Source of the DNA: Escherichia phage BEU50
Reading direction: 5' to 3' (one strand)
DNA: 64,000 nucleotides
Sequence record: OM632671.1
Positions within the stretch are counted from its first letter, which is position 1. Each line of letters starts with the position of its first letter. This document shows, piece by piece, positions 11,410-43,078 of the stretch. Position numbers and translations under genes: made by a program. Below the pieces are notes generated by a model. That model saw only the letters and a list, made by a program, of their open reading frames with translations. It had not been told where the DNA came from and ran no database searches.

Positions 11410-11886
11410 ATGATTATCAATGAAAACTCTTGGCACTTTAAAATTTATGCCGCGTTCAATAGTACATGGAATCGTCCGAAAACGTTATGTGCTTATTTTT
11501 GGAAAACGTTTCTCCCGGTATTGGCTGCTTCAATTATTGGATTTGCGATTTTAGCAGCAGTCACAATCATTGGCCAGGAAATTTTAACTAAATTCTTTGT
11601 TTTTAGCAGTCTATGGACATTAGTTCTGGCTTCAATTGGTGTAGGCATTTTAATGGTAGCAGTCATGGCTTTTATTGCTACCGGGTTGGTAATTGGTCCG
11701 TCTTGGTTGTTAGACAAATATAACGACAGAAAATATTATAAAGAAATTGAGCTCATTGCACAAAACCAAGAACGAATTAAAAATGGACTTGAGCCTATTG
11801 AACGTAAGAAATCGATTATCGTTGAATTTTTAAAAGCTCGTAAAGCTAAAGTGTGTCCTACTCTTGAATACAAGCCAGGCAAATGA
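11410..11886 (+). CDS. hypothetical membrane protein (158 aa)
   Basis: Two hydrophobic helices. Confidence 0.5.
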   Translation: MIINENSWHFKIYAAFNSTWNRPKTLCAYFWKTFLPVLAASIIGFAILAAVTIIGQEILTKFFVFSSLWTLVLASIGVGILMVAVMAFIATGLVIGPSWLLDKYNDRKYYKEIELIAQNQERIKNGLEPIERKKSIIVEFLKARKAKVCPTLEYKPGK

Positions 11887-12665
11887 ATTATATCAAATGT
11901 TATGATGCAATAATTCAACGAGGAAAACTTAGAGGCAGTGATAAGTCTGAGTTGAATTATTATACTGAATCCCATCACATAATCCCTTCATGTATTGGAG
12001 GGAGTGATGACCCGAGTAATAAAGTTTTATTGACTGCCAGGGAACATTTTATCGCTCATTGGTTATTATCAAAAATTCACCCAAACTCTGAAGGATTGAT
12101 TTACGCTTACTGGGCGTTCTATAATTTAGGCGAAGATGCTTTAGGACGAAATCTTAAATTAACCTCAAGAGGCTATAAAGACGTAAGGGAAAAGTTTTCA
12201 GAAATTCACTCTAATAGAATGAAAGATATATGGGAATCACAAGAATATCGTGATAAGCGTTCAGCGACCATGAGCCTCCCTGAGATAAAGGCTAAAATGT
12301 CAGATTCTCAAATAGAGGCACAGAATAGACCTGAAGTTAAAGCAAAAATATCTACTGCTATCAAAGAGGCCTTTAAGAGAGATGATGTTAAAGAACGGCA
12401 TTCAAGAGCTGTTAAAAAGGCCCTAGATAATCCAGAAACTAAAAAGAGACAGTCTGAAGCGTCTAAAGCTAGACAACGAACTGGTAAACACTGGGAAGAT
12501 TATGATATGCTTTACGAACTTTGGATTAAATTGAATCGACCTAAGCGTGGGGCTTTCGGAACCCATATTAGTAAAATGGGTTATCCTAAATCAAATTACC
12601 AACGCTTAATATTACAGTTCATTGAAGATTATGAAAGGAAAGTGAATAATGAAAACGATTGTTAA
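11883..12665 (+). CDS. HNH homing endonuclease
   Basis: MNY N-terminus; HHIIPSCIGGSDDPSNKVLLTAREH motif; C-terminal NUMOD-like repeats. Confidence 0.8.
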   Translation: MNYIKCYDAIIQRGKLRGSDKSELNYYTESHHIIPSCIGGSDDPSNKVLLTAREHFIAHWLLSKIHPNSEGLIYAYWAFYNLGEDALGRNLKLTSRGYKDVREKFSEIHSNRMKDIWESQEYRDKRSATMSLPEIKAKMSDSQIEAQNRPEVKAKISTAIKEAFKRDDVKERHSRAVKKALDNPETKKRQSEASKARQRTGKHWEDYDMLYELWIKLNRPKRGAFGTHISKMGYPKSNYQRLILQFIEDYERKVNNENDC

Positions 12666-13635
12666 GGCTTACTTTGGTAGCCACCTTTATGGAACGTCTA
12701 CCCCTGAATCTGACGTTGATTTTAAAGAAATTTATGTCCCTCATGCTCGTGATATCTTGACCGGTAACGTTAAAGAACATATGAGCAAGAACACGAATAA
12801 CACATCTTCTAAGAACACAAAAGACGACGTGGACCATGAGTTATATAGTCTCAAATATTTCTTTAAACTAGCTGCAGATGGTGAAACTGTCGCATTAGAT
12901 ATGCTTCACACTCCACCAAGTCTAGTAGTTAAATCTGATTTGCCTGATGTATGGAAGTATATTCAAGATAACAGGTCTCGTTTCTATACCACTAACATGA
13001 AATCTTATTTAGGGTATGTCCGTAAGCAAGCTTCTAAATACGGTGTCAAGGGTTCTCGACTGGCTGTTCTTCGTCAAGCCCTTAAACGTTCTAATGAATG
13101 GGGACAATACTTTGATAATGGTGCAGTAATTCGTTTATCACATATGAAGAATGTTCTGCCTGTAGGTGAATTTGCTTCATGGGTTGAAACCGAAAACGAG
13201 AAAACAGGTAAGCAAACATTCTATAATCTGTTAGACCGTAAATTCCAAGATACGTTAACCAATAAAGAGTTCAATGCCATCCTGGTTAAACTGGAAGAGA
13301 ACTACGGTGAACGTGCTCGTAAGGCGGAAGCCAACGAAGGTATTGACTGGAAAGCATTGAGTCATGCATGCCGTGGTGGACTTCAACTATTGGAAATTTA
13401 CAAAACCGGCGACCTGGTTTACCCACTTCAGGATGCTCCATTTATTCTCGATGTTAAGCTTGGTAAACATACGTTTAAAACTGTACAAGAATTCCTAGAA
13501 GATATCGTTGACCAAGTTGAACAAGCATCAGAACAAGCCGCTAAGAACGGTATGCAACAAAAAGTAGATATGAGTTTCTGGGATGACTTCCTTGAACAAG
13601 TCTATCTCGAAAATCATAATTCTTACTATAAATAA
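12649..13635 (+). CDS. predicted nucleotidyltransferase (Pol-beta-like fold)
   Basis: YFGSHLYGTSTPESDVDF minimal NTase motif. Confidence 0.55.
   Translation: MKTIVKAYFGSHLYGTSTPESDVDFKEIYVPHARDILTGNVKEHMSKNTNNTSSKNTKDDVDHELYSLKYFFKLAADGETVALDMLHTPPSLVVKSDLPDVWKYIQDNRSRFYTTNMKSYLGYVRKQASKYGVKGSRLAVLRQALKRSNEWGQYFDNGAVIRLSHMKNVLPVGEFASWVETENEKTGKQTFYNLLDRKFQDTLTNKEFNAILVKLEENYGERARKAEANEGIDWKALSHACRGGLQLLEIYKTGDLVYPLQDAPFILDVKLGKHTFKTVQEFLEDIVDQVEQASEQAAKNGMQQKVDMSFWDDFLEQVYLENHNSYYK
13627..13634 (+). promoter_or_regulatory. late promoter core TATAAATA
   Basis: Exact TATAAATA upstream of the secreted ORF at 13667. Confidence 0.45.
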
Positions 13636-13666
13636 GTAGATAAATAACCATTAACTTGAGGTAAAT

Positions 13667-13948
13667 ATGAAAAAATTAGTAATTGGTTTATTCGCAGTAA
13701 TGATGGCATTCTCTGTTGGTGCTACCACAGGTGCTGCTGGCGGTAGTGCAGGAGCTGGTGGTAACCAGTCTTCTGGGCCTTCCAATGGTTCGGTAAATGC
13801 ATCACATTCTCAGGGTATTGAGAACATTAAATCAAGCTATATTAATAGCACGGCAGGTCAAGCAACTGAAGCATGGTCAAAGGGCCGAGTAGTTACTCGC
13901 TCCGTATTCTGTGATATGCCTAATTATGTTGCTAAGTGCGATAAGTAA
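13667..13948 (+). CDS. secreted Gly/Ala/Ser-rich protein (93 aa)
   Basis: Signal peptide followed by low-complexity Gly-rich region. Confidence 0.5.
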   Translation: MKKLVIGLFAVMMAFSVGATTGAAGGSAGAGGNQSSGPSNGSVNASHSQGIENIKSSYINSTAGQATEAWSKGRVVTRSVFCDMPNYVAKCDK

Positions 13949-13953
13949 ATGTG

Positions 13954-13973
13954 GGGACCTTCGGGTCCCTTTA
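13954..13973 (+). terminator. UUCG-tetraloop hairpin, weak terminator
   Basis: GGGACC-ttcg-GGTCCC then TTT. Confidence 0.45.
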
Positions 13974-13999
13974 GGGGGTTAAAATATTTTTAAAAAGTA

Positions 14000-14028
14000 G
14001 TGTACATGCTTTTAGGATATGTTATTAT
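14000..14028 (+). promoter_or_regulatory. early promoter
   Basis: GTGTAC 14000-14005, TATTAT 14023-14028. Confidence 0.4.
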
Positions 14029-14066
14029 AGACCTATCGAAACGAAATGAGTAAATTGGAGAATAAA

Positions 14067-15047
14067 ATGTTCAACGTTCAAATCAAAAAAGGTATCTATC
14101 GTAATAACGAAATCTCTGGTTCTTATGTTGCCACAAAGACATGGTTCCCGGCAAAGCTTAATCCTGAATGTTCCCACTTAGGTGATGGTAAAATTTTCGT
14201 TATGATTGATGGTTCTGAACGTGGAGTATGGGTCTTCAAATCAGACATCGTAATGGAAGGAGTTGAGACATCTCCAGTTTCAGTTGTTGAAAGCACTGAA
14301 GATATGAAAACTCGTATCAACAAACGCTTTAAAGTAATGAACATGATGACGAATGGCATTATCGATGGCAAAATTCGTTCACTCATTATTTCAGGTGCAG
14401 CCGGTATTGGTAAGACGTATTCTCTGGATAAAGCACTTAATAATGCTAATGATAATGGTTTCATCAAATACAAAAGCATTAATGGTAAAATCTCTGGTAT
14501 TGGCCTTTACGAACAACTTTGGCTCAACCGTGATGCATACAGCGTTCTCTTAATCGACGACGTTGATGTATTCTCAGATATGGACATCTTGAACCTTCTT
14601 AAAGCAGCATTAGATACCGGAGATAAACGCAAAGTTTGTTGGAGCACTGCGTCATCTTATCTCGATGATAAGGGTATTGATAAAGAATTTGAGTTTGAAG
14701 GTACTATCGTTTTCATTACAAACGTTGATATCGATAAAGAGTTAGAACGCGGTTCGAAACTTGCTCCGCACCTTCAAGCTTTAGTATCTCGTTCAGTGTA
14801 TTTGGACCTTGGAGTACACTCTAATGAAGAGATTATGGTTCGAGTTGAAGATGTAATATTATCTACTGACATGATGCAGAAACGTGGCCTGACGGATGCA
14901 GAAACGTATAAAGCATTGTCCTGGATGAAGGCTAACGTATCTCGTCTTCGCAATGTATCATTACGTACGGCTCTTTATGTAGCGGATTTTATTTCAACTG
15001 ATAAAGATGGTTGGGAGGAAATCTCTGAAGTAACTTTACTGAAATAA
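14067..15047 (+). CDS. P-loop NTPase of unknown function
   Basis: Walker A GAAGIGKT, Walker B LLIDDVD; ATG 14067 has the better SD. Confidence 0.55.
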   Translation: MFNVQIKKGIYRNNEISGSYVATKTWFPAKLNPECSHLGDGKIFVMIDGSERGVWVFKSDIVMEGVETSPVSVVESTEDMKTRINKRFKVMNMMTNGIIDGKIRSLIISGAAGIGKTYSLDKALNNANDNGFIKYKSINGKISGIGLYEQLWLNRDAYSVLLIDDVDVFSDMDILNLLKAALDTGDKRKVCWSTASSYLDDKGIDKEFEFEGTIVFITNVDIDKELERGSKLAPHLQALVSRSVYLDLGVHSNEEIMVRVEDVILSTDMMQKRGLTDAETYKALSWMKANVSRLRNVSLRTALYVADFISTDKDGWEEISEVTLLK

Positions 15048-15185
15048 GCTTATAGGAAGTTCTGAGGTAACAAAAGCCATAAAGATGAATAATCATATGG
15101 CTTACCTCAAAGAAGGACACCAGGAACCTACTGAGGGCATAGAAATATTTAAAAATAATGATGTACAAATCAAAGAGGATATGTT

Positions 15186-15473
15186 ATGGATTTTATGCAA
15201 AAAATTAAAGCCGCAGTCGAACTCTATGCTCATCGTATGGTTAGTTCTACAATGCAATATAGCGAGGAGGTTCGCCAGGACTCTTCCTTGAAAGGAAAAA
15301 CTAGAGCCTTAATTACCTTAGACCGTCTACAAAAGAATGCCATAGAGATGCTCCAGTACGACAAGGGTGTATATAAGAAAGAACAGGAAGAGAAACTTAA
15401 ATCTGAAAAATTACAAAAAATCCCGAAGTCTGTTTGGTTCAGTGGAAAAAATACCGAAAAAAGTTTCTTTTAG
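15186..15473 (+). CDS. hypothetical protein (95 aa)
   Basis: ATG after AGAGGA. Confidence 0.45.
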   Translation: MDFMQKIKAAVELYAHRMVSSTMQYSEEVRQDSSLKGKTRALITLDRLQKNAIEMLQYDKGVYKKEQEEKLKSEKLQKIPKSVWFSGKNTEKSFF

Positions 15474-15475
15474 TT

Positions 15476-15510
15476 GTTTACAAGGTCTATGGTTATGTTA
15501 TTATAGACCT
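15476..15510 (+). promoter_or_regulatory. early promoter inside 8-bp inverted repeat
   Basis: GTTTAC 15476-15481; AGGTCTAT / ATAGACCT; TATTAT 15499-15504. Confidence 0.5.
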
Positions 15511-15531
15511 ATCAACTACTGGAGGTAAAAC

Positions 15532-16059
15532 ATGAACGCTAAAGATATTTTCAACCTGGTAAATTATAACGACGGTAAATTTAAATCTGAAGCACAAAGC
15601 AAGTTCTTTAATGACGTTGCTTATGGTAACGAGATTACCGTGGACGGAGGTCAGATTTTCAAATCTCGCTGGAATTGGATTGTTATCATCGATTCAGTTG
15701 GAATTGTGGAAGTCTACAAAAACACTAACAAAAAACGTACATTATTCTGGTCTCGTGAAACTAACGAGCAGTACAAAAAGGATAAAGCATCTCGTTTATC
15801 CAAAGTAACCCAGGAAGATATCGAGTTTATCAAGAAAGATATCGAGATGTACGAAAATTTAATCGCTGAAGACCAGGCAGTACTCGATAAGTTTGATGAA
15901 ATTAAAGCTTCTCGTGAAATCCCTGACTTCATGAAAGAAACAGTAAACGAACGATACGCTCTCACTTCAGAACGTATTGCAAACTATACAAAACAGAAAG
16001 CAGAACGTATTAGTACTCTTCGGAAATTTGAAGAACGTTTAAAGACGGTTCACGCATAA
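15532..16059 (+). CDS. hypothetical protein (175 aa)
   Basis: ATG after GGAGGT. Confidence 0.5.
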   Translation: MNAKDIFNLVNYNDGKFKSEAQSKFFNDVAYGNEITVDGGQIFKSRWNWIVIIDSVGIVEVYKNTNKKRTLFWSRETNEQYKKDKASRLSKVTQEDIEFIKKDIEMYENLIAEDQAVLDKFDEIKASREIPDFMKETVNERYALTSERIANYTKQKAERISTLRKFEERLKTVHA

Positions 16060-16061
16060 AC

Positions 16062-16086
16062 GCTTTACCCAAGGACGGGTTATAAT
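16062..16086 (+). promoter_or_regulatory. promoter of the CCAAGGA-spacer subfamily
   Basis: GCTTTACCCAAGGACGGGTTATAAT. Confidence 0.4.
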
Positions 16087-16121
16087 GGTTTTGAGTTCCA
16101 ATTCAATCTGAGGAAATAGTT

Positions 16122-17117: not shown

Positions 17118-17146
17118 TGTACAACCAAGGATGGTTGGAGTATAAT
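17116..17146 (+). promoter_or_regulatory. early promoter, CAACCAAGGATGGTTGG subfamily
   Basis: TGTACA..CAACCA-agga-TGGTTG..TATAAT 17141-17146. Confidence 0.5.
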
Positions 17147-17172
17147 AAATTTTTCAACATGAGGAATATAAA

Positions 17173-18132: not shown

Positions 18133-18136
18133 AATA

Positions 18137-18166
18137 GTTTACAACCAAGGATGGTTGGAGTATAAT
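18137..18166 (+). promoter_or_regulatory. early promoter, CAACCAAGGATGGTTGG subfamily
   Basis: GTTTAC 18137-18142, TATAAT 18161-18166. Confidence 0.55.
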
Positions 18167-18194
18167 GAATCTATCTTAACGAGAGGAAAATATT

Positions 18195-20790: not shown

Positions 20791-21262
20791 ATGTTATTAT
20801 CAGGCAAAATATAAAGAAGAAAAACAAAAATTTTATGATGCACAGAATGGTAAGTGTCCTATTTGCCACCGTGAATTAGACCCTGATGTTCAAGGTAACC
20901 ATCTTGACCACGACCACGAATTAAACGGGCCAAAAGCCGGTAGAGTTCGTGGATTACTCTGTAATCTGTGCAACGCAGCAGAAGGTCAAATGAAGCATAA
21001 GTTCAACCGTTCCGGTCTTAAAGGACGTGATGTTGACTACCTCGAATGGCTTGAAGCTCTTCTTGCTTATTTGAAACAAGATTATTCTTATAATAATATC
21101 CATCCTAATTTTGTTCCAGACAAAACTAAAGAGTTCTCAAGACTAGGTAAAGAGGAAATGATGGCTGAGATGCTTCAAAGAGGATTTGAATATAATGAAT
21201 CTGACACCAAAACACAGTTAATAGCTTCATTTAAGAAGCAACTTAGAAAGAGTTTAAAATGA
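20791..21262 (+). pseudogene. 49: endonuclease VII (gene 49) homologue with disrupted 5' reading frame
   Basis: ATG 20791 gives MLLSGKI then TAA at 20812; the homologous frame (YKEEKQKFYDAQNGKC...HLDHDHELNG...) runs 20807..21262 with no ATG before 20990. Confidence 0.6.
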
Positions 21263-23076
21263 CAATTGAAAAAGAAATTGAAGGATTGATTCATAAAACT
21301 AATAAAGACCTTTTAAACGAGAATGCTAATAAAGATTCTCGTGTTTTTCCAACTCAACGGGACCTTATGGCTGGTATTGTGTCTAAACACATTGCCAAAA
21401 ATATGGTCCCGTCTTTTATTATGAAAGCGCATGAAAGCGGAATTATCCATTTCCACGATATTGATTATTCCCCTGCTCTTCCATTTACTAATTGCTGTTT
21501 AGTAGATTTAAAAGGAATGCTTGAGAACGGGTTTAAGCTCGGTAATGCACAGATTGAAACTCCTAAATCAATCGGTGTTGCTACTGCAATTATGGCACAA
21601 ATTACTGCACAAGTTGCTTCACACCAGTATGGCGGAACGACTTTTGCTAATGTAGATAAAGTACTTTCTCCTTATGTTAAACGCACCTATGCAAAACATA
21701 TTGAGGATGCAGAAAAATGGCAAATCGCTGATGCGTTGAATTATGCTCAATCCAAAACAGAAAAAGATGTCTATGACGCATTCCAAGCTTATGAATATGA
21801 AGTAAACACTCTCTTTAGTTCAAACGGACAAACGCCTTTTGTAACAATTACATTTGGTACGGGAACTGACTGGACTGAACGAATGATTCAGAAAGCAATT
21901 CTGAAAAATCGTATTAAAGGTCTTGGTCGTGATGGGATAACTCCTATTTTCCCTAAGCTTGTTATGTTCATTGAAGAAGGTGTTAATCTTTATAAAGACG
22001 ATCCGAACTATGATATTAAGCAGCTTGCGTTAGAATGTGCAAGCAAAAGAATGTATCCTGACATTATTTCGGTTAAGAATAATAAAGCTATTACCGGTTC
22101 ATCTGTTCCTGTTTCTCCAATGGGTTGCCGTAGTTTCTTGAGTGTATGGAAAGATTCAACCGGTAATGAAATTCTTGATGGTCGCAATAATCTTGGTGTT
22201 GTAACATTGAATCTTCCTCGCATCGCGTTAGATTCTTATATTGGAACGCAATTTAACGAACAGAAATTTGTTGAATTATTCAATGAACGAATGGATTTAT
22301 GTTTTGAAGCTTTGATGTGTAGAATTAGTTCCTTAAAAGGAGTTAAAGCGACTGTTGCTCCTATTCTTTACCAAGAAGGTGCATTCGGGGTTCGTCTTAA
22401 ACCTGATGACGATATAATTGAGTTATTTAAAAATGGTAGAAGTTCAGTGTCCCTAGGATACATTGGTATTCACGAATTGAATATTCTTGTCGGTCGTGAT
22501 ATTGGACAAGAAATTTTAACTAAAATGAATGCTCATCTTAAACAGTGGACTGAAAGAACTGGATTTGCTTTTAGTTTATATTCGACTCCTGCTGAAAACC
22601 TTTGTTATCGCTTCTGTAAACTTGATACAGAAAAATATGGAAGTGTAAAAGATGTTACCGATAAAGGCTGGTACACTAACAGTTTCCACGTTTCAGTAGA
22701 AGAAAATATTACTCCGTTTGAAAAGATTTCTCGTGAAGCGCCATATCATTTCATTGCGACAGGTGGTCACATTTCTTATGTTGAACTTCCTGATATGAAA
22801 AATAACTTAAAGGGTCTTGAGGCCGTATGGGATTATGCTGCACAACATTTAGATTATTTTGGTGTTAATATGCCAGTAGATAAATGTTTTACATGCGGAA
22901 GTACCCATGAAATGACTCCTACTGAAAACGGATTTGTTTGTTCTATTTGTGGAGAAACTGATCCTAAAAAGATGAATACCATAAGAAGAACATGCGGCTA
23001 TCTTGGAACTCCTAGCGTTGTTCCATGGAATTTAGGTAAAATGAAAGAAATGGTAAAACGAGTAAAACATGCATAG
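21259..23076 (+). CDS. nrdD: anaerobic ribonucleoside-triphosphate reductase
   Basis: 605 aa; C-terminal Zn-ribbon cysteines and glycyl-radical motif RRTCGYLG. Confidence 0.95.
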   Translation: MTIEKEIEGLIHKTNKDLLNENANKDSRVFPTQRDLMAGIVSKHIAKNMVPSFIMKAHESGIIHFHDIDYSPALPFTNCCLVDLKGMLENGFKLGNAQIETPKSIGVATAIMAQITAQVASHQYGGTTFANVDKVLSPYVKRTYAKHIEDAEKWQIADALNYAQSKTEKDVYDAFQAYEYEVNTLFSSNGQTPFVTITFGTGTDWTERMIQKAILKNRIKGLGRDGITPIFPKLVMFIEEGVNLYKDDPNYDIKQLALECASKRMYPDIISVKNNKAITGSSVPVSPMGCRSFLSVWKDSTGNEILDGRNNLGVVTLNLPRIALDSYIGTQFNEQKFVELFNERMDLCFEALMCRISSLKGVKATVAPILYQEGAFGVRLKPDDDIIELFKNGRSSVSLGYIGIHELNILVGRDIGQEILTKMNAHLKQWTERTGFAFSLYSTPAENLCYRFCKLDTEKYGSVKDVTDKGWYTNSFHVSVEENITPFEKISREAPYHFIATGGHISYVELPDMKNNLKGLEAVWDYAAQHLDYFGVNMPVDKCFTCGSTHEMTPTENGFVCSICGETDPKKMNTIRRTCGYLGTPSVVPWNLGKMKEMVKRVKHA

Positions 23077-23088
23077 GGTTAAACACCA

Positions 23089-23721
23089 ATGAATTATGAC
23101 AGAATCTATTCAAATCTAGTTAATTCTGCTGAACACCCATCTAAGCCCCGTCAAACTAAAGCCGGGTATGAACTTCATCATATAATTCCAAGAAGCATGG
23201 GTGGTCCAGATGATTTAGACAACTTAGTATTTTTAACTTATAAGGCCCACTATACTGCTCACCATTTATTGGCTAAAATATATGGTGGAAAGATGTATGA
23301 TGCATATTGGATAATGAGTAATAGTAAGCATAGAAAAGTTACTTCTTCACAATACGCGTATGCAAAAGCTAAGAAATTTGAAAATCAGCGTGGCGCAAAA
23401 AGAAGCGATAAAACTAAGAAGCTAATGAGCATAGCTAGGTCTAAAGTAACTCTTCCTGATGATTTTGGAAAAAGGATATCTGATGGGCTAACAGGAAGAA
23501 CTTTGTCTACTAGTCATAAAGAGCATATCAAAAATAGTTCTAGAAATCGCTTTAACACCAAAACGGTTATTGGCTATTCACCAGACGGAAATACAATAGA
23601 ACTAACTGGAGCAACTGAAATAAGAAATGCAGGATTTTTTCATTCTGCTGTTTATAAATGTTGCAAAGGAATTCAATCTATTCATAAGGGATATACTTGG
23701 AAATATAAAGATGAATTATGA
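23089..23721 (+). CDS. HNH homing endonuclease
   Basis: MNYDRIY N-terminus; HHIIPRSMGGPDDLDNLVFLTYKAH motif; lies between nrdD and nrdG. Confidence 0.8.
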   Translation: MNYDRIYSNLVNSAEHPSKPRQTKAGYELHHIIPRSMGGPDDLDNLVFLTYKAHYTAHHLLAKIYGGKMYDAYWIMSNSKHRKVTSSQYAYAKAKKFENQRGAKRSDKTKKLMSIARSKVTLPDDFGKRISDGLTGRTLSTSHKEHIKNSSRNRFNTKTVIGYSPDGNTIELTGATEIRNAGFFHSAVYKCCKGIQSIHKGYTWKYKDEL

Positions 23722-24181
23722 TAGAATATACCCGTGCTGCTTTGTTAATGGTCCTGGATGCAGGGTCGTTCTCTTCGTCACTGGATGTTTGCATAAATGC
23801 GAAGGTTGTTATAATCGTAGTACTTGGAATGCTCGTAACGGACAGTTATTCACTATGAATACCGTTAAAGAACTTGCGTCCCATTTAAGCAAATCGTATA
23901 TCCAAGGCCTTACCTTAACCGGTGGTGACCCACTTTATCCACAGAACCGAGAAGAGATTTCAAATTTAGTTTCTTGGGTTAAAGCAAGATTTCCGGAGAA
24001 AGATATCTGGTTGTGGACAGGATATAAGTTTGAAGATATTAAACAGCTAGAAATGCTTAAATATGTTGATGTTATTATTGATGGGAAGTATGAGAAAAAT
24101 CTTCCGACTAAAAAGCTGTGGCGAGGATCAGATAATCAGCGACTTTGGTCAAATACCGATGGGGTGTGGAAACATGATTAA
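23711..24181 (+). CDS. nrdG: anaerobic ribonucleotide reductase activating protein (radical SAM)
   Basis: MNYDRIYPCCFVNGPGCR and CLHKCEGC (CxxxCxxC); ORF-track start 23627 is an upstream extension. Confidence 0.9.
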   Translation: MNYDRIYPCCFVNGPGCRVVLFVTGCLHKCEGCYNRSTWNARNGQLFTMNTVKELASHLSKSYIQGLTLTGGDPLYPQNREEISNLVSWVKARFPEKDIWLWTGYKFEDIKQLEMLKYVDVIIDGKYEKNLPTKKLWRGSDNQRLWSNTDGVWKHD

Positions 24182-24291
24182 ATTGAATTACATTATGGAT
24201 ACTATAAATGATATGATTTTTCGTTTTGGTCCAGAATTTTATTCGCAATATAGTTTAGTGCTTATCAATGCTTAGTTAATTAAGGGTAAAT

Positions 24292-25163: not shown

Positions 25164-25408
25164 TTAGTTTAGATTCAAAGAAAGTTGTTCTAACCCTTAA
25201 AGTTAATGACGAGCGACCGGTATTCGTTACCATTTCCGATTTGCATGTTGAAATTGCTAATGGCGTTCGTACTTATCAAGCAAATAAAACTCAATGGGAT
25301 TATATCCCGATGTTGACGCTTACTCAGCGTTTAGAAGCAATTGGCCTTAAAGACCTTTCAGTAAGTGAAGTGAATTTTATCAAACGCATTGTATCAATCA
25401 ACCTCTGA
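25160..25408 (+). CDS. hypothetical protein (82 aa)
   Basis: ATGA overlap. Confidence 0.45.
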   Translation: MISLDSKKVVLTLKVNDERPVFVTISDLHVEIANGVRTYQANKTQWDYIPMLTLTQRLEAIGLKDLSVSEVNFIKRIVSINL

Positions 25409-25415
25409 GGTACTT

Positions 25416-25709
25416 ATGGGTAAAACATATCGTCGTAAAGATTTGAAAGTTCGCGATTACGACTATTTTGGTAAGCGTAAAGCTCCTGATGGTGTTAGCC
25501 ACAAAGACATGGTTGAAAACATTTTCCGCTCAGATAAATGGAAACGTATGAAAGGCGTTGATTCTGAAGTCAAGAATGAAATGAATCGACAACTCCGCAA
25601 AGAAGTTCGTAAGTTGAAAAAAGATGTTTACAGTAAAGAAGAGTATGATTATAATACTTCTCATACTGAAGCCAAACGTAAAGCTAACGAATGTTATCGT
25701 TACAGTTGA
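25416..25709 (+). CDS. hypothetical basic protein (97 aa)
   Basis: ATG after TGAGG; Lys/Arg-rich. Confidence 0.45.
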   Translation: MGKTYRRKDLKVRDYDYFGKRKAPDGVSHKDMVENIFRSDKWKRMKGVDSEVKNEMNRQLRKEVRKLKKDVYSKEEYDYNTSHTEAKRKANECYRYS

Positions 25710-25848
25710 GGAAATTATGAATATCAAACGCTGGCTTTTTAAGCAAGGGTTCTACACTTTAAATGCTACTCCAAAAGGCGATACAACTAAGTGGTCAGTA
25801 ACTGACTGGATTAAATTTATTGATGAAAATGGCAATTGGGAAATTTAA

Positions 25849-26049
25849 ATGAATCCTGAATCTATGTTATCTCAAAAACTTCGTGAAGAACGTGCCGAAT
25901 TCTTTGCCAATATGAAACTCAACGGTGTTGAGGATGAAGACTTCTTACGCTGGTTCTGGATTTACAAATACAAAGAATGCCAGCACGCTGTACTACTGAC
26001 TTGTGCAGTTATGTACGAAGGCTGGAAAGGCGCTAAAAAGTTCGGTTAA
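25849..26049 (+). CDS. hypothetical protein (66 aa)
   Basis: ORF track. Confidence 0.4.
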   Translation: MNPESMLSQKLREERAEFFANMKLNGVEDEDFLRWFWIYKYKECQHAVLLTCAVMYEGWKGAKKFG

Positions 26050-29880: not shown

Positions 29881-30140
29881 CTTTAGATGAATTTAACAAT
29901 GCTGGACTCAGGCTTGAAGTTGAAATGGACGTTAAAGATGATGATGGATTCGAGAACACTATCAAGTATTGGATTGAGCCATTACGCGTTGAAGGCAATG
30001 AAGTTAAAGCAGTTCATGTCTGCACCGACTGGGCTGTATCCTTTAACTTCAACATTTTAGATAATGACACACCTAAATCATTGCGAGATATGGCTGTATC
30101 TTGTATTAAGGATGCATACTGTGAAGTTTTCGACATTTGA
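29877..30140 (+). CDS. hypothetical protein (87 aa)
   Basis: ATGA overlap with gene 47. Confidence 0.45.
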   Translation: MTLDEFNNAGLRLEVEMDVKDDDGFENTIKYWIEPLRVEGNEVKAVHVCTDWAVSFNFNILDNDTPKSLRDMAVSCIKDAYCEVFDI

Positions 30141-30156
30141 CATTAATGATGAATTC
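30108..30156 (+). repeat. diverged direct repeat, copy A (SD + GTGAAG start + first codons)
   Basis: AAGGA, GTGAAG and GA(C/T)ATTAATGA(T/C)GAATT in the same spacing as 30312..30358. Confidence 0.5.
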
Positions 30157-30327
30157 ATAGCAAACATTGATTATACCGAAGAAGATTCTAGATATGTTGG
30201 AATAATTTATATTACATCAAAAACAGCACAAGGCGTTGTTTGCATGGCTGAATTTGATGAATACTTTTTAGATTATGATGATATGATAGAATGGTCTAAA
30301 AGATACATTAAAAGGAATCTTTTGTGA
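30121..30327 (+). CDS. hypothetical protein (about 68 aa)
   Basis: GTG start with AAGGA SD; N-terminus duplicated at the start of the downstream HNH gene. Confidence 0.4.
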   Translation: MKFSTFDINDEFIANIDYTEEDSRYVGIIYITSKTAQGVVCMAEFDEYFLDYDDMIEWSKRYIKRNLL

Positions 30328-30358
30328 AGAATTTTAAACTTGATATTAATGACGAATT
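30312..30358 (+). repeat. diverged direct repeat, copy B, at the start of the HNH gene
   Basis: Collinear with 30108..30156. Confidence 0.5.
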
Positions 30359-31178
30359 TTTAATAAAGGAATTAGTTGAAAAATTAGTGTTGAGCGAAGA
30401 AGACGCCAAGTCTTACATTAATTTTATTTCTATGAATTCAACTGTTAAAACTCCGGGTAAAACGGAAGCACATCACGTGCTTCCTAAATCAATATTTCCT
30501 GAATATTTAAAATCTACATGGAATTTAGTTAATTTAAGTCATTTTAATCATTTCAAAGCACATTTCTTATTAGCAAAAGGTAAAAATGGAAAAATGCTAA
30601 ATGCTTTAAATAGAATGATGTCAGGAAAAACATATAAAAATTTATCTTTAGCCGAAGTTGATTTAATAGCTGCTGAATATAGTTTTATAAGACAAGATGT
30701 AAGTGACACAATATCAAAAAGGCTTCAACAATATTATTCAAATCCGCAAAATAGAAATGCTGCTAGAGAAAGGGCATTAAAATATTTTTCAGTAGCAAAA
30801 AATAGGAAAGATAACAAAGAAAGATTAAATAATTTTAAAACAAAACAAAAAATTTCAATGGCTTCAAGGGAATGGTTTAATAACGAAGAAAATAAAATTA
30901 AACACCAAAAGGCTGTTCGTGCTGCTTTATCAAAACCTGAATATAAAATAGCTATATCAAATTCAGTAGCTGCTAGTTGGAAAAATCCGGAGATTAGAAA
31001 AGCTCATATAGCATCTCGACGAAAAGGCTATCATTGGGATAATAAAGATAAATTGTATGAATTGTGGATATCATATAATCGTCCTAAACATGTGATGTTT
31101 AGGAAAATGTTAGTTAAGAATGGATATCCAATAGAGGCTTCATTACAGGCTTTAGTTAAAGAATTTTCTTCATTGTGA
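30324..31178 (+). CDS. HNH homing endonuclease inserted between genes 47 and 46
   Basis: GTG start; AHHVLPKSIFPEY...LVNLSHFNHFKAH motif; Lys-rich NUMOD-like C-terminus. Confidence 0.75.
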   Translation: MKNFKLDINDEFLIKELVEKLVLSEEDAKSYINFISMNSTVKTPGKTEAHHVLPKSIFPEYLKSTWNLVNLSHFNHFKAHFLLAKGKNGKMLNALNRMMSGKTYKNLSLAEVDLIAAEYSFIRQDVSDTISKRLQQYYSNPQNRNAARERALKYFSVAKNRKDNKERLNNFKTKQKISMASREWFNNEENKIKHQKAVRAALSKPEYKIAISNSVAASWKNPEIRKAHIASRRKGYHWDNKDKLYELWISYNRPKHVMFRKMLVKNGYPIEASLQALVKEFSSL

Positions 31179-31193
31179 ACAATTGGATACAAA

Positions 31194-32882
31194 ATGAAAT
31201 CATTTAAACTTAATAGAGTAAAATATAAAAATATAATGTCAGTTGGTCAAAATGGAGTTGACATTCAATTAGATAAAGTCCAAAAGACATTAATCACTGG
31301 TAAAAATGGCGGTGGTAAATCTACGATGTTAGAAGCCATCACTTTTGGACTTTTCGGCAAACCATTTCGTGATGTTAAGAAAGGACAAATCATTAATAGC
31401 ACGAACAAGAAAGAGCTCTTAGTTGAGCTTTGGATGGAATTCGATGATAAAAAATACTTCATTAGACGTGGCCAAAAGCCCAATATTTTCGAAATCTCCG
31501 TTGACGGTGTTCGTCTTGATGAATCTGCCAGCAGTCGTGACTTCCAAGAAGAATTTGAACGTAGCATCGGAATGTCATACGCGTCTTTTAAACAAATCGT
31601 TGTGCTTGGGACGGCAGGGTATACCCCTTTCATGGCTCTTAGCACCCCTGCTCGTAGAAAACTTGTCGAAGACCTTTTAGAAGTCGGCACACTCGCTGAA
31701 ATGGATAAAATCAATAAGTCTCAAGTTCGAGAACTTAATTCCCAGGGACAAGTTCTCGATGCCAAGAAAGATGGTGTTATCCAACAAATTAAGATTTATA
31801 ACGAGAATATCGAACGTCAAAAGAAATTATCTGGTGATAATGTAGCGCGTCTACAGAATATGTATGACGACCTAGCCAAAGAAGCTCGTTCATTAAAAGC
31901 AGAAATCGAAGAAGCTAATGAGCGACTACTTAATATCGTTCTTGATGAAGACCCTACTGAGGCATTCAACAAGATCGGACAAGAAGCATTCTTGATTAAA
32001 TCTAAAATTGACTCATATAACAAAGTTATTAAGATGTATCATGATGGTGGTACATGTCCTACTTGTGCATCACAGTTGCACCAGGGTGATCCTATTGTCT
32101 CTAAGATTACCGATAAGCTTCACGAATGTAATCACTCATTCGAGCAACTTACATGTCACAGAGATAATCTGAGTGTCCTAGTGGACGAATATAGAGCTAA
32201 TGTTAAGACTAAACAGGACCTTGCATCTGATATTCGTACCAAGAAACAAGCAATGATTGCCACTATTGATAAAGCTAAGAAAGTTAAAGCTGCAATAGAA
32301 CAAGCCTCGGCGGAATTTATCGACCATGCCGATGAGATAGCTTTGCTTCAAAAAGAACTTGATAAAATCATTAAAACAAAATCGGATATCGTTCTTGAAA
32401 AATACCATCGCGGTATTATCACAGATATGTTAAAAGATTCTGGTATTAAAGGTGCTATCATTAAAAAATATGTGCCTCTGTTCAACAAGCAGATTAACCA
32501 TTATCTTAAAATCATGGAAGCTGATTATGTGTTTTCTATTGACGAAGAATTCAATGAATCTATAAAATCACGTGGACGTGAAGAATTCAGTTATGCTTCG
32601 TTTAGTCAAGGTGAAAAGGCACGTATCGATATCGCATTGTTGTTTACATGGCGAGATATCGCTGAAAAGGTCTCTGGCGTTAGAATCAATACATTAATTA
32701 TGGACGAAGTCATGGATTCCGCGACTGATTCTGAAGGTATTAAAGCTATTTCAACAATTCTTAACTCTCTAACCGATGCAAACGTGTTTATAATTAGTCA
32801 CAGAGACCATGACCCACAAGCTTATGGACAACATCTTCAAATGAGCAAAGTTGGACGATTTACTGTAATGAAAGCCTCTTAA
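31194..32882 (+). CDS. 46: recombination ATPase gp46 (Rad50-like)
   Basis: Walker A GKNGGGKST, CPTC zinc hook, long coiled coil, C-terminal signature region. Confidence 0.95.
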   Translation: MKSFKLNRVKYKNIMSVGQNGVDIQLDKVQKTLITGKNGGGKSTMLEAITFGLFGKPFRDVKKGQIINSTNKKELLVELWMEFDDKKYFIRRGQKPNIFEISVDGVRLDESASSRDFQEEFERSIGMSYASFKQIVVLGTAGYTPFMALSTPARRKLVEDLLEVGTLAEMDKINKSQVRELNSQGQVLDAKKDGVIQQIKIYNENIERQKKLSGDNVARLQNMYDDLAKEARSLKAEIEEANERLLNIVLDEDPTEAFNKIGQEAFLIKSKIDSYNKVIKMYHDGGTCPTCASQLHQGDPIVSKITDKLHECNHSFEQLTCHRDNLSVLVDEYRANVKTKQDLASDIRTKKQAMIATIDKAKKVKAAIEQASAEFIDHADEIALLQKELDKIIKTKSDIVLEKYHRGIITDMLKDSGIKGAIIKKYVPLFNKQINHYLKIMEADYVFSIDEEFNESIKSRGREEFSYASFSQGEKARIDIALLFTWRDIAEKVSGVRINTLIMDEVMDSATDSEGIKAISTILNSLTDANVFIISHRDHDPQAYGQHLQMSKVGRFTVMKAS

Positions 32883-33595
32883 TGAGGCTTATATTTACAA
32901 TTATCGAAATGCCAACGATGCATATTAGCAGGGATCCCTATTTTATCGCAATGAGGACATTTAATTTTCTTGTCCTCTTTTTTCTTTCTGTTAGGATTTG
33001 ATTTACAGAATTTTATATGTGGCTTTAACGCCGATAACTTAGTAGTTAAGCCACAAAACGGGCAAGAATCTTCTTTCCAAATTTTCGTGGCCATGGTTTT
33101 AATTATTTTATCTTTTGTTTCTTGATCAAGTTTTACTATTTTAGGCGTTGGACCTTGTTTACAATTATCAAAATGCCAACGTCGCATGTTTCCTTCAGTT
33201 CCAGTTAAACCACAATGTGGACAGGTAATCTTTGGTTTATTTTTTGCAGACTCGGACATTTTCTTACGGGTTTCAGCAGTGAATTCTTTATTCTTTTGAA
33301 CTTCTTGATTCTTACGTCGAAGCCATCCAAATAATTTGTTTTTGCTTCTATCTGCTTTAGGAGATGATATGGTCATCATACGAGCGGCATATATTAAAGA
33401 GGCATTATCTGGATGGATTTTTACCAACAGTTGATGTGCCAAATAATGTTCTTCCGGTGTTAAGTCTACTAAGTTTAAAGCATCATCACTTCCACCTAAA
33501 CATTGTGGTATAATGTGATGACGTTCTGTATAACCATCTAAACTTCTTGATTTAGCATTGGTGATAAGCTTTTCGTATATTGAGTTATAATTCAT
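32879..33595 (-). CDS. HNH homing endonuclease (minus strand)
   Basis: MNYNSIY N-terminus; HHIIPQCLGGSDDALNLVDLTPEEH; C-terminal CPxCG zinc-finger repeats. Confidence 0.8.
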   Translation of the reverse strand: MNYNSIYEKLITNAKSRSLDGYTERHHIIPQCLGGSDDALNLVDLTPEEHYLAHQLLVKIHPDNASLIYAARMMTISSPKADRSKNKLFGWLRRKNQEVQKNKEFTAETRKKMSESAKNKPKITCPHCGLTGTEGNMRRWHFDNCKQGPTPKIVKLDQETKDKIIKTMATKIWKEDSCPFCGLTTKLSALKPHIKFCKSNPNRKKKEDKKIKCPHCDKIGIPANMHRWHFDNCKYKPH

Positions 33596-33672
33596 TTACT
33601 AAATCCTTATTTGATACAGCAACAGATAAATTGATAAACCTATTTATATTGCTTTAATCACGGAGATTTATA

Positions 33673-36625: not shown

Positions 36626-36627
36626 AA

Positions 36628-36996: not shown

Positions 36997-37000
36997 AGCA

Positions 37001-37020
37001 ATGGGACTTCGGTCCCATTT
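37001..37020 (+). terminator. UUCG-tetraloop hairpin, weak terminator or RNA stability element
   Basis: ATGGGAC-ttcg-GTCCCAT then TT; TATAAT follows at 37025. Confidence 0.4.
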
Positions 37021-37077
37021 GGAGTATAATAAGTTCATCAACAAACAAAAGACAATAACTCGTCTAAAGGAAATTAA

Positions 37078-39789: not shown

Positions 39790-39829
39790 TATAATGTCAT
39801 GGACGGTAAACTAATTAAATGAGAGAAAT

Positions 39830-40465
39830 ATGAAAACTACTCCTATTACTATCGCTATTGACGCAATCATAAAACAAGCTTCTTCTTTGGCCGCTATGGC
39901 CAAAGTAATTAGTCAAAACCCTGCTCGTTATAATGCTATTCTAGAAACTCTTCGACGCCCGGGACTTAGTAATTATGAAAGCCGAGTAATTATTACAGGT
40001 GTTGGTAAGAATGCTAATATTGCAACTAAAGCTTCTGAGACATTTGCTTCACTCGGTATCCCGAGTATGTACTTGAACACTGGGCATTATTCTCACGGTG
40101 ATGCAGGATTCATTGCGCCTAATGATGTGTTGATTCATATTAGTCGTTCTGGTAAAACTGAAGAAATGATAGGCGTGGCTAAGCATCTTAAAATGATTCG
40201 ACCGAACGTCAAACAGATTCTGTTGCATTGTAACCCAGACATTCCACAAGAAAATGAAGCCCTTTTTGATTACTCTTTCTGTACAGGCATCGCAGTAGAG
40301 GTTGATGAGAATTCTCTGGCTCCGACTATGTCCACTACATTGTTGTTAGCGCTTATCGATACGTTTGCTATCAACCTTTCGTCTGAACGTGGATTTACCT
40401 CTAATGACTTCCTTAAGTTCCACCCTGGTGGTGCACTAGGTGCCATGTTACGAGGCGAACAATGA
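39830..40465 (+). CDS. SIS-domain sugar-phosphate isomerase, KdsD/GutQ-like arabinose-5-phosphate isomerase without CBS domains
   Basis: ITGVGKNANIATKASETFASLGIPS, HGDAGFIAPNDVLIHISRSGKTEE, LAPTMSTT...FHPGGALG parallel the KdsD SIS-domain motifs. Confidence 0.75.
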   Translation: MKTTPITIAIDAIIKQASSLAAMAKVISQNPARYNAILETLRRPGLSNYESRVIITGVGKNANIATKASETFASLGIPSMYLNTGHYSHGDAGFIAPNDVLIHISRSGKTEEMIGVAKHLKMIRPNVKQILLHCNPDIPQENEALFDYSFCTGIAVEVDENSLAPTMSTTLLLALIDTFAINLSSERGFTSNDFLKFHPGGALGAMLRGEQ

Positions 40466-40605
40466 AAGCAATAACAATAGGACTTTTACTATTGATGCTT
40501 GTCATGACTATCTACTGGAGCTTAACGGCTCCAGTAATGATTCCAACACTTGTAATTGGATGGATTATGATTGGACTACAAGCAAAGTATGAATGCTTTA
40601 ACTAG
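40462..40605 (+). CDS. small membrane protein (47 aa)
   Basis: ATGA overlap with the isomerase stop; two hydrophobic segments; below ORF-track cutoff. Confidence 0.3.
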   Translation: MKAITIGLLLLMLVMTIYWSLTAPVMIPTLVIGWIMIGLQAKYECFN

Positions 40606-40646
40606 AATAGTGTACAATACTCCTACTTACCAATGAGGACCACAAC

Positions 40647-42332
40647 ATGAAAAAAGCTGTTATTCTTGGTGCTGGACTGGCAACTCGTTTATATCCAATT
40701 ACTCACCATATTCCTAAGGTGCTTGTTAACTATAAACAAGACACTATTCTGAGCAATTTGTATACAATTTATTCTGACCTAGGCGCAGATGAAATTATTG
40801 TAGTAGTTCATTCAAAATTTGCTGAAACTGTTCGAGCTTATTGTGAGCAAGAAGGGTTCAATGTGACTATTCGTACAGTTGATGAAGCGTATGGTTCTGC
40901 TTATGCTCTTGCTAAATTACACAAAGATTTAGACGGCCATAATGTAATTGTTAACTGGTGTGATATTATTCCGGATTTTGGTTCATGGTCTTGGAATGTT
41001 AACGCAATCTATGTTAAGGGTGACGAATGTCGATATAATTTCGACGGTGAAAATATCACTAACGTAGGTTCAACAGGTGGTAATGTTGTAGGAATTTATC
41101 AGTTCAAAGACTGGGAATTCTATATGGGTTCTACTGATGAGGAAATTCATGAATACTGCAAAGGACGTGATTTCGTAGAATTCCTTTACGGCAGCGCATT
41201 CAATAAATCAGAGCTTATGAATCTAATTGATTTAGGTGATATGCCTAAACTTGAAAAAGCTCATGAAGTTCGTGAACTTAATCGTAGTTTTAATGCAGTT
41301 GAAATTGGTGAAGAAACTGTAACTAAATTCGCATTAACCGAACAGGGCCGAGCTCTTCAGAAAGATGAGATTTCGTGGTATTTGAAAGTGAAATCAGATT
41401 CAGTCCCTCAGTTAGTTTCTGTTAATGAAAATAACTTTGAAATGGAACGCATTAAAGGTAAGCCGGCATTTGAATATATTAAATCCAAATCAAGTCTTGC
41501 TCGTCCACAAATTGTTGATGCAATTTTAGATGCACTGAAATTCAGCACAGACACTTATTTTGTAAGTCCTGAAACTGTTCGTCGTGATTTCACTAAAGAA
41601 TTCTATACGAAAGTTATTGATCGTTGTGAAAGCATTCAACCATTGATTGATTCATTTGGTAAAATCACACATGTGAACTACACTAAGATTGGACGTCTGA
41701 AGCCAATGCTGAAACAAGCTTTAGAACACCTTATTCGTTATCATAACCGTTCTCAGGGACAGTACTCTGTTATTCATGGTGACCCGAACTTCAGTAATAC
41801 TATGATTACTGATAACGGCGAAGTCAAATTTATCGACCCTCGTGGATATTTTGGCGAAACCAAGATTTACGGGCCAAAATTGTACGATGAAGCTAAAGTG
41901 CTTTACGCTGTTTCAGGTTATGATGAATTCAATGCTAATCCGACCTGGGGACAGTTTACTATTGATGAAACAACTTGTAATGTGACTATTAACATCAATC
42001 CATTAGTTTACAAATATGGAAAGATGAGTTCGTTTAACGAGTATCATCATTTGGCAGTGGCAATTATCTGGATTGCATTAGGTGGTTATTTCAAGAATAA
42101 TCCACTTAAAGCGGTAGCCGCATATTATAAAGGTATGGAACTTCTGACTAAGCAATTACGTAACATGGGCCGTGTACTTCAGGACGGCTCTATTAGTTAT
42201 GACGTAGCAGAACCTGTAACGGCTACTCTGATTACAAAAAATCCTGGTAAATGGGTACTAACTGATAAAGAAACTGGTGTTTCCTATCGTCCAATCGGTG
42301 GCGATATCACTCATCAATGGGAACGAATTTGA
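40647..42332 (+). CDS. bifunctional sugar-1-phosphate nucleotidyltransferase / sugar kinase
   Basis: N-terminal ILGAGLATRLYPIT NTP-transferase motif; C-terminal VIHGDPNFSNTMITDNGEVKFIDPRGYFG kinase catalytic loop. Confidence 0.7.
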   Translation: MKKAVILGAGLATRLYPITHHIPKVLVNYKQDTILSNLYTIYSDLGADEIIVVVHSKFAETVRAYCEQEGFNVTIRTVDEAYGSAYALAKLHKDLDGHNVIVNWCDIIPDFGSWSWNVNAIYVKGDECRYNFDGENITNVGSTGGNVVGIYQFKDWEFYMGSTDEEIHEYCKGRDFVEFLYGSAFNKSELMNLIDLGDMPKLEKAHEVRELNRSFNAVEIGEETVTKFALTEQGRALQKDEISWYLKVKSDSVPQLVSVNENNFEMERIKGKPAFEYIKSKSSLARPQIVDAILDALKFSTDTYFVSPETVRRDFTKEFYTKVIDRCESIQPLIDSFGKITHVNYTKIGRLKPMLKQALEHLIRYHNRSQGQYSVIHGDPNFSNTMITDNGEVKFIDPRGYFGETKIYGPKLYDEAKVLYAVSGYDEFNANPTWGQFTIDETTCNVTININPLVYKYGKMSSFNEYHHLAVAIIWIALGGYFKNNPLKAVAAYYKGMELLTKQLRNMGRVLQDGSISYDVAEPVTATLITKNPGKWVLTDKETGVSYRPIGGDITHQWERI

Positions 42333-43078
42333 TACATTATCTCTACAAAACTACTAATCTTATAAACGGTAAAGTTTATTTAGGAATGCACTCGGCTGAA
42401 GAAGCCGAGCCTTTAGATTTATATAAAGGTTCTGGTAAATTATATAAAAAGGCTGAAAGGAAATACGGTAAGGAAAATTTTCTTAAAGAAATCATTTCCT
42501 ACCATAGCTCAAGAGAAGAATTAAAAATAGCTGAAAAGGCTCTAATAACATTAGACATAGTTAAAGACCCGAATTATTACAATCTTAAAACTGGTGGCGA
42601 AGGTGGTTCTGACGGGTTATCCCAAAGGTCCAAGGATAAAATTTCTAAGGCAAATAAAGGACGTTTAGTTGGTGATAAAAACCCAAGATGGGGTAAAACT
42701 TTGTCAGCTGAATCTATAGCTAGGGGTAAAGAAAAGCACAGGAGGTATGGTAAACCTGCATTACATGGTCTAAAGATTAATGTAGATGGCAAATATTATG
42801 AATCCTGTCGGGAAGCGGCTAAAGATTTGGGTATATCTTCTGCCACGATTCAAAAGAGAGTAAAATCGCCTAAATATCTTAATTATCGATATCAGGACGA
42901 AAGCAAAAATGCTCACAAGTCTCAAAAATTTGTTAAAATAAACGAAAATTACTATGAATCTCTTAGGATAGCTGAAAAGAAAACGGGTATTCCTAGAAAG
43001 CGTATAGCTGATAATATTAAAAATTCTATTGAAGGATATTGCTATGAAACCATTACATCTTTGCGTGGACGTCGATGA
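42317..43078 (+). CDS. GIY-YIG homing endonuclease (Seg-like)
   Basis: IHYLYKTTNLINGKVYLGMH GIY-YIG motif; C-terminal NUMOD/HTH-like region; overlaps both neighbours. Confidence 0.75.
   Translation: MGTNLIHYLYKTTNLINGKVYLGMHSAEEAEPLDLYKGSGKLYKKAERKYGKENFLKEIISYHSSREELKIAEKALITLDIVKDPNYYNLKTGGEGGSDGLSQRSKDKISKANKGRLVGDKNPRWGKTLSAESIARGKEKHRRYGKPALHGLKINVDGKYYESCREAAKDLGISSATIQKRVKSPKYLNYRYQDESKNAHKSQKFVKINENYYESLRIAEKKTGIPRKRIADNIKNSIEGYCYETITSLRGRR

Follow-up and report, generated by a model that had tools for sequence, protein, structure and literature searches.

How does a T-even phage of the RB69 type come to carry five homing endonuclease genes (HEGs) at sites that are empty in RB69 itself? 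The question is raised by a stretch of 64,000 nucleotides (nt) from Escherichia phage BEU50 (sequence record OM632671.1), hereafter called the window, in which a first-pass annotation made from the sequence alone had placed four HNH genes and one GIY-YIG gene. Its coordinates held exactly, and all five are uninterrupted open reading frames (ORFs):

11883-12665, plus strand: HEG1, a Mob-type HNH gene of 260 amino acids (aa), orthologue of T4 mobD (PHROG 655, E 7e-56)
23089-23721, plus strand: HEG2, which is mobC, an HNH gene of 210 aa between nrdD and nrdG (Pfam HNH, 26.8 bits)
30324-31178, plus strand: HEG3, a T2-type HNH gene of 284 aa with a GTG start, between 46.1 and 46 (PHROG 655, E 3e-45; PHROG 12434 'HNH endonuclease', 9e-16)
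32879-33595, minus strand: HEG4, an HNH gene of 238 aa with three C-terminal CCHC zinc-finger-like modules (PHROG 655, E 6e-67)
42317-43078, plus strand: HEG5, a Seg-type GIY-YIG gene of 253 aa between an NTP-transferase gene and an isomerase-like gene of the arabinose cluster (PHROG 314, E 3e-43)

Classical intronless homing with co-conversion is very probably the best explanation for these five intact, free-standing HEGs in an RB69-like phage. What carries this reading are two tracts of Tequatrovirus sequence within a Mosigvirus backbone, one around mobC and one around HEG3, the traces left by two transfers between genera in which flanking sequence was co-converted. Both were delimited by informative sites:

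22584-24007 at minimum, 22509-24247 at maximum (1.4-1.7 kb), no strand: Tequatrovirus-derived co-conversion tract around mobC
30036-31265 (1.23 kb), no strand: Tequatrovirus-derived tract comprising the 3' end of 46.2, 46.1, HEG3 and the first ~72 nt of gene 46

The backbone itself is that of an RB69-like (Mosigvirus) T-even phage. When the region 11-34 kb was compared by megablast with a database of 50,697 phage records, the best matches were Mosigvirus coliphages, among them Escherichia phage NRG-P0074 (97% identity, 96% of the query covered) and phage a20 (98.7% identity, 91% covered); about 123 records covered at least 80% of the query. The gene order is tk, rI, nrdC.x, 49, nrdD, nrdG, 55, 47, 46, 45, 44, 62, regA and 43, followed 3' of gene 43 by an RB69-type arabinose/sugar cluster and then by 42, uvsX and 41, and every gene but HEG4 lies on the plus strand. 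At the loci compared, this backbone is ~70-80% identical to Tequatrovirus. Positions at which three Mosigviruses agree and two Tequatroviruses differ from them were taken as informative sites, and the window was scored at each as M-state or T-state.

A synteny comparison with relatives, proposed as a check in the first-pass annotation, gave a clear picture of variable occupancy. RB69, the type Mosigvirus, has 0 of the 5 sites occupied and had been predicted to lack HEGs (PMC2993671). NRG-P0074 is without HEG2, a20 is without HEG2 and HEG3, and ST0 carries HEG4 alone of the five, as an unannotated ORF (~25206-25997 of the ST0 stretch). Among the phage records, 2, 31, 70, 13 and 3 carry HEG1, HEG2, HEG3, HEG4 and HEG5, respectively; the count for HEG4 is of full-length copies and rises to 19 with partial or ~75% matches.

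The clearest case is mobC. Its product is 99.0% identical to that of T4 mobC (99.5% at the nucleotide level), and two Tequatroviruses carry the gene at 100% nucleotide identity. HEG2 shares with T4 mobC both the insertion site and an 11-nt overlap with nrdG, but differs in sitting inside a Mosigvirus backbone, from which its T-type tract is sharply bounded. From 22584 to 24007 there are 87 consecutive informative sites in the T-state, with M-state at positions up to 22508 and from 24248 onwards; the breakpoints are thus placed within about 75 nt on the left and 240 nt on the right, and at both boundaries the two genera are almost identical in sequence. The tract matches Salmonella phage BCPSen_003, a Tequatrovirus, at 1414 of 1424 positions (99.3%) and the Mosigviruses at 81-83% in alignable columns; to its right the window equals NRG-P0074 at 100%, with Tequatroviruses at ~89%. 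Through it, ~500 nt at the 3' end of nrdD and ~300 nt at the 5' end of nrdG have been replaced. The transfer has thereby given the phage a Tequatrovirus NrdG, 100% T-type and 79% identical to Mosigvirus NrdG, together with a Tequatrovirus C-terminal end of NrdD, whose last 22 residues are T-type. Homing can therefore swap functional parts of metabolic genes, as this T4-type NrdG and NrdD end in an RB69-type genome illustrate. The gene is absent from RB69, a20, NRG-P0074 and ST0, and the 31 phage records that carry it include no Mosigvirus. In the Klebsiella phages Wolf_ER13, Shark_ER15 and Boboto, mobC is 98.6-99.2% identical while the nrdD/nrdG flanks are only ~87% identical to the window, so that the same element has entered a third group of phages as well.

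Apart from the tract itself, the nrdD-nrdG locus shows some features of its own. Codons ~44-100 of NrdG (window 23840-24010) have only 57% protein identity between Tequatrovirus and Mosigvirus, with both protein ends at 93-100%; this diverged patch beside the HEG site is possibly related to avoidance of the nuclease target. Further upstream, at 21200-21600 in nrdD, Tequatrovirus is a slightly better match to the window and a20 than RB69/ST0 are (198 vs 186 of 200 nt). This segment may be an old conversion tract; the I-TevII intron of T4 nrdD is located a few hundred nt downstream of it (~window 21795). In RB3, RB5, RB6 and RB7 the nrdD-nrdG site holds a seg-type gene, annotated as segD, in place of mobC. 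SegH has reportedly been described as replacing mobC, and the arrangement in these four phages is consistent with that.

The second tract is still more sharply delimited. It contains 85 T-state sites, is preceded by 154 M-state sites on its left flank and gives way to M-state from 31277 on the right, which places the breakpoints at 30027-30035 and 31266-31276, that is, within about 10 nt. Inside, it is 98.6% identical to BCPSen_003; outside, the window is 69-79% identical to Tequatroviruses. HEG3 has a GC content of 28.5% vs 36.9% for the window, forms a single tight protein cluster within a set of 5.8 billion proteins, and is carried at 98-100% identity by its 70 phage records, which include T2 and PP01 and are, judging by phage name, mostly T2/T4-like Tequatroviruses. 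The gene occupies the same 46.1/46 site as the HNH gene of T2 and PP01, but differs from the T2-type gene in lying in a Mosigvirus, by way of the 1.23-kb imported tract, which is common only to NRG-P0074. The left Mosigvirus/Tequatrovirus junction is shared by NRG-P0074 alone, the next record being 86% identical, and the right breakpoint of NRG-P0074 differs, at 31303/31319, ~40 nt further on. Since the two phages were sequenced independently, the tract that they have in common indicates that such transfers occur in this lineage. The single 'other HNH' HEG that has been listed for T2 (PMC2993671) may, by our own inference, be a gene of the HEG3 type.

Are these two tracts linked to their HEGs, or do they merely sit among other imported segments? 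When the region 9-46 kb was screened in 200-nt chunks for near-identical Tequatrovirus segments, only the mobC and HEG3 cassettes were found. Tequatrovirus tracts unconnected with HEGs, the sign of a generally chimeric assembly, were not present across 9-46 kb, and this candidate was rejected. With only two T-type segments, both of them HEG cassettes, HEG-linked transfer is favoured over random mosaicism and over a generally chimeric assembly. It could nevertheless be argued that the foreign tracts arose by ordinary homologous recombination between co-infecting phages, with the HEGs as passengers or inactive relics. T-even genomes are indeed mosaic, much of this mosaicism is not linked to HEGs (PMC2993671), and the nuclease activity of MobC and of the HEG3 protein is a prediction from sequence. 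Against this, both inter-genus tracts within 37 kb are centred on a HEG and none lies elsewhere, the ORFs are intact with invariant catalytic residues, and mobC is conserved at >=98.6% in 31 records, including the three Klebsiella phages with their ~87% flanks, which is the pattern of an actively spreading element. We consider ordinary recombination improbable.

How would homing have produced such footprints? When two related phages infect the same cell, the nuclease of one would nick or cut the HEG-less allele of the other close to the insertion site. After resection, the phage recombination machinery would repair the break with the HEG-carrying genome as template, and the HEG would be copied into the recipient along with a variable length of flank. 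The Mob and Seg enzymes themselves presumably made the initiating breaks. In T4, homing with co-conversion has been documented for the seg genes as well as for mobE, and target nicking for MobA and MobE (PMC2988022, PMC2790892). For SegF, SegG and MobE, likewise, a single tract comprises the HEG with flanking host sequence and ends in homologous DNA (PMC2988022; PMC2790892). Those cases, however, were shown in laboratory crosses of close relatives, whereas here we see a natural footprint between genera that differ by ~20-30% at the loci compared.

Several points weigh against homing and are best taken together. No co-conversion tract is present beyond ~60 nt around HEG1, HEG4 and HEG5, whose flanks are ordinary Mosigvirus. 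RB69 is reported to exclude T4, and no recombinants were obtained (PMC2993671). Both MobC and MobD are listed with 'activity not determined, target unknown' (PMC2988022). Moreover, the mobC/Mosigvirus hybrid was not found elsewhere in the 50,697 phage records or, sought by a junction pattern, in IMG/VR or the JGI metagenomes, and an exact look-up of the chimeric NrdD returned no record; being unique to the window, the hybrid rests on one assembly. Could the mobC tract then be an assembly chimera from a mixed Tequatrovirus/Mosigvirus sample, in which the path switched in conserved nrdD and nrdG? The lack of a second instance in the records and collections searched would fit, as would boundaries in near-identical stretches, where an assembler could switch. 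Yet in ~9-46 kb, over which the Tequatrovirus comparison loci extend, the tract is, besides that of HEG3, the sole non-Mosigvirus segment and is centred on a HEG, and the analogous HEG3 tract recurs in the independently sequenced NRG-P0074. An assembly artefact thus seems highly improbable to us, and homing remains the reading that we follow.

The first-pass annotation had regarded the flanking genes as loci under homing-driven gene conversion. The Tequatrovirus tracts bear this out for HEG2 and HEG3; it does not extend to HEG1, HEG4 and HEG5, where no tract is visible. For these three, either the donors were Mosigviruses or the insertions are older. We infer that they spread in the same manner, the flanks of the donors being too similar for the transfer to show. 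Each is an insertion in the RB69 background: HEG1 a clean one of ~770 nt relative to RB69 and ST0, HEG4 one of ~806 nt relative to RB69, and HEG5 one of ~720 nt relative to RB69 and ST0.

Alternatively, the three could be old residents of a Mosigvirus sub-lineage that were inherited vertically and lost elsewhere. Their ordinary Mosigvirus flanks agree with this. HEG4, found in 13 Mosigvirus records at 96-100% identity, varies by 2-4% from one Mosigvirus to another, a spread close to that of the backbone. With 74-81% identity to other genera, HEG1 is a MobD allele that has diverged and no recent import: it is 74% identical to T4 MobD over 258 aa, and at the DNA level only a20 and NRG-P0074 carry it, while the MobD family at the protein level comprises 53 records with 74-81% identity. 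It shares with T4 mobD the site upstream of nrdC.11, the length and a 17-nt overlap with the downstream nucleotidyltransferase gene, but is a diverged allele whose upstream neighbour is an RB69-type membrane-protein gene not in T4. On the other hand, HEG1 and HEG5 occur in only 2 and 3, respectively, of more than 120 Mosigvirus-like records, so that vertical descent would need many independent precise losses, and a tract from a donor within the genus would not be visible. Long residence is thus a possibility to be taken seriously, though we hold it to be the less probable course.

Comparison with HEG-less relatives also reveals how the cassettes are joined to their hosts. Junction alignments with RB69 and ST0 show insertions at gene boundaries that leave the host ORFs intact. 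Each of the four same-strand HEGs is placed exactly at the initiation site of the gene that follows and uses the start codon there; mobC, HEG3 and HEG5 also use a few codons around the captured start, and the 3' end of the cassette brings a replacement start. Two captured starts can be laid out in full:

23089-23106, plus strand: captured start of mobC, whose first 18 nt, with the 21 nt before them, correspond to the region from which nrdG is natively initiated in HEG-less RB69
30324-30341, plus strand: captured start of HEG3, GTGAAGAATTTTAAACTT, the same 18 nt with which gene 46 natively starts (GTG) in T4, HEG-less at this site

A second copy of the nrdG start (16/18 identical) restarts nrdG at 23711-23728, and a diverged copy of the gene 46 start (13/18) restarts gene 46 at 31194-31211. 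In HEG5 the ATG is in frame with the native start that the isomerase-like gene has in RB69/ST0 and precedes it by 15 nt. The ATG of HEG1 overlaps the upstream stop codon (ATGA), and the same ATGA-overlap start serves nrdC.11 in RB69. HEG4, being antisense, is the exception to this layout. Such an arrangement would allow insertion without a polar effect on the downstream gene, a simple rule for placing a HEG without harm to the host. It also fits the description of T4 HEG cassettes as promoter-less and poorly translated (PMC2988022).

Taking tract and anatomy together, we lean, by a modest measure, towards a joint picture in which mobC has moved by recent homing out of a Tequatrovirus and into a genome of the RB69 type, the MobC target lies within ~500 nt of the nrdD 3' end or in the first 300-540 nt of nrdG, and Mob/Seg cassettes generally insert at the first codons of the downstream gene, take its start and bring a duplicate one. 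The two genome types involved had been regarded as not exchanging DNA. The short direct repeats that result from duplicate starts could allow precise loss of a HEG. Indirect evidence thus suggests that mobC is an active, mobile element, whose target region would be narrowed accordingly by the mapped breakpoints. A review of 2010 saw no convincing evidence of such movement between T4-related genome types (PMC2993671); here, a natural transfer from Tequatrovirus to Mosigvirus is documented and its breakpoints are mapped. The main value lies in a clear natural example of inter-genus homing. The process is well known and the kind of element is not new: the HEG families are known, several of these genes are annotated in close relatives, and free-standing T-even HEGs are textbook elements.

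A side observation concerns the protein starts. MobC and NrdG both begin with MNYDRIY (23089-23109 and 23711-23731), and MobB, MobD, HEG1 and HEG4 begin with MNYxx(I/V/C)Y. Two origins are conceivable: capture of the Mob N-terminus from nrdG, or an insertion guided by microhomology. NrdG of E. coli presumably also begins with MNY.

The argument so far takes the five genes to be what they were called, and the profile searches support both the HNH and the GIY-YIG assignments: four Mob-type HNH genes and one Seg-type GIY-YIG gene, all intact, are confirmed. PHROG 655, 'homing endonuclease', matches all four HNH genes with E-values from 2e-42 to 6e-67. Pfam is less clear, with HEG2 above the HNH cut-off (26.8 vs 21.4 bits), HEG1 sub-threshold at 16.9 bits and no match for HEG3 and HEG4; given the strong PHROG 655/12434 matches of all four, the Pfam model appears to under-detect the Mob subfamily, and the catalytic motifs were therefore checked directly. 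In an alignment with T4 MobB, MobC and MobD, the core E..HH..P..N.V.L..H..AH is invariant in HEG1-4, and E29, H31, H32, P35, N46, H55 and H59 (HEG1 numbering) are invariant throughout the seven proteins. A profile of the Mob alignment matches HNH domains in solved structures with E-values from 3e-4 to 2e-3, namely those of a group II intron maturase, McrA and Cas8-HNH (6ME0, 6GHC and Cas8-HNH).

For HEG5, the matching PHROG 314 is likewise annotated 'homing endonuclease'; the Pfam models I-TevI_DNA-bd (33.6 bits), NUMOD1 (24.6 bits) and NUMOD3 (20.4 bits) are matched at or above cut-off and SegE_GIY-YIG is sub-threshold; its homologues carry PF19835, PF01541 and PF07460. It is 45% identical to residues 10-120 of T4 SegA, the catalytic domain, and Y10, Y21, G23, E73 and N89 do not vary across HEG5 and the 26 homologues compared, SegA among them. 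The single sequence found no match in the PDB, for which the family profile was needed: built from HEG5 and the 26 homologues, it aligns to residues 5-91 of the I-TevI catalytic domain (1LN0, E 1e-4), and the positions of GIY, YIG, Glu and Asn are conserved there. No residue aligns to Arg27 of I-TevI in the HEG5 subfamily, SegA included. HEG5 thus shares with SegA and the Seg family the invariant catalytic residues, NUMOD3 and an I-TevI-type helix-turn-helix, but differs in its insertion site, the RB69-type arabinose cluster. Its full-length relatives are few and, outside its own cluster, at most 71% identical.

Further paralogues or fragments were not found by six-frame phmmer searches of the whole 64 kb with all five proteins as queries. 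Nor did Rfam match any group I intron or other RNA in the window, so that all five HEGs are free-standing. The sporadic presence and absence at fixed sites among close relatives (RB69, a20, NRG-P0074 and ST0) is the pattern expected of such genes.

In number, the HEGs amount to 5 per 64 kb, or 5.9% of the bases. The first-pass annotation had read this density as a mark of intense lateral exchange. Exchange is indeed supported by presence and absence among relatives, but the density itself is that of T4, whose tk-to-uvsX interval also holds five HEGs (mobD, I-TevII, mobC, mobB and segA). An 'exceptional density' was therefore rejected as a candidate feature: with an equal count in the same interval, the density is T4-like and ordinary for T-even phages. 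It is unusual compared with RB69, which has been described as without HEGs (PMC2993671). The same annotation had the HEGs interrupting T4-syntenic gene strings, which is mistaken for HEG1 and HEG2, whose sites are identical to those of T4 mobD and mobC; the sugar cluster, also taken as T4-syntenic, is of the RB69 type (arabinose).

HEG4 stands apart from the others in orientation and, by prediction, in expression. Its reading direction is antisense to the 46->45 transcription unit, and the stop codons of HEG4 and gene 46 overlap. Two elements accompany HEG4:

33641-33648, minus strand: predicted T4-type late promoter TATAAATA, ~46 nt upstream of the HEG4 ATG, within the inserted cassette
32872-32890, no strand: 7-bp inverted repeat AAGCCTC/GAGGCTT enclosing the overlapping stops of gene 46 and HEG4, from sequence inspection

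Over both strands of 11-44 kb, only two matches to TATAAATA occur in all, and the one at HEG4 lies in the segment that RB69 lacks. HEG4 would accordingly be expressed late from its own promoter, as far as sequence can tell. A consensus scan called no terminator where gene 46 and HEG4 converge. T4 segD is likewise antisense to its neighbours and is the sole antisense HEG of T4 (PMC2988022); HEG4 differs in being an HNH rather than a GIY-YIG gene and in having a consensus late promoter just upstream, which segD is without. The HEG4 N-terminus is 43% identical to that of T4 MobB, and the protein belongs to a large graded family. Its AlphaFold model (pLDDT 90.8) has an N-terminal beta-beta-alpha region followed by three beta-beta-alpha modules, for which Foldseek gave weak matches to HNH domains and zinc-finger arrays.

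Among the relatives, ST0 has between gene 49 and nrdD, at 13942-14763, an unannotated ORF of 273 aa whose N-terminus is GIY-YIG-like and which carries NUMOD3-like repeats. This Seg-like ORF is a further free-standing HEG, and the corresponding site is empty in the window. Upstream of HEG5, a single ORF of 561 aa with an N-terminal NTP-transferase domain spans 40647-42332, where RB69 has two overlapping ORFs (ORF053c and ORF052c); the copy in NRG-P0074 is labelled 'dCMP deaminase', which looks like a misannotation. The RB69-type arabinose cluster of the window also holds a SIS-domain isomerase, a U32 peptidase-like gene, a gene 42 homologue and a glycosyltransferase.

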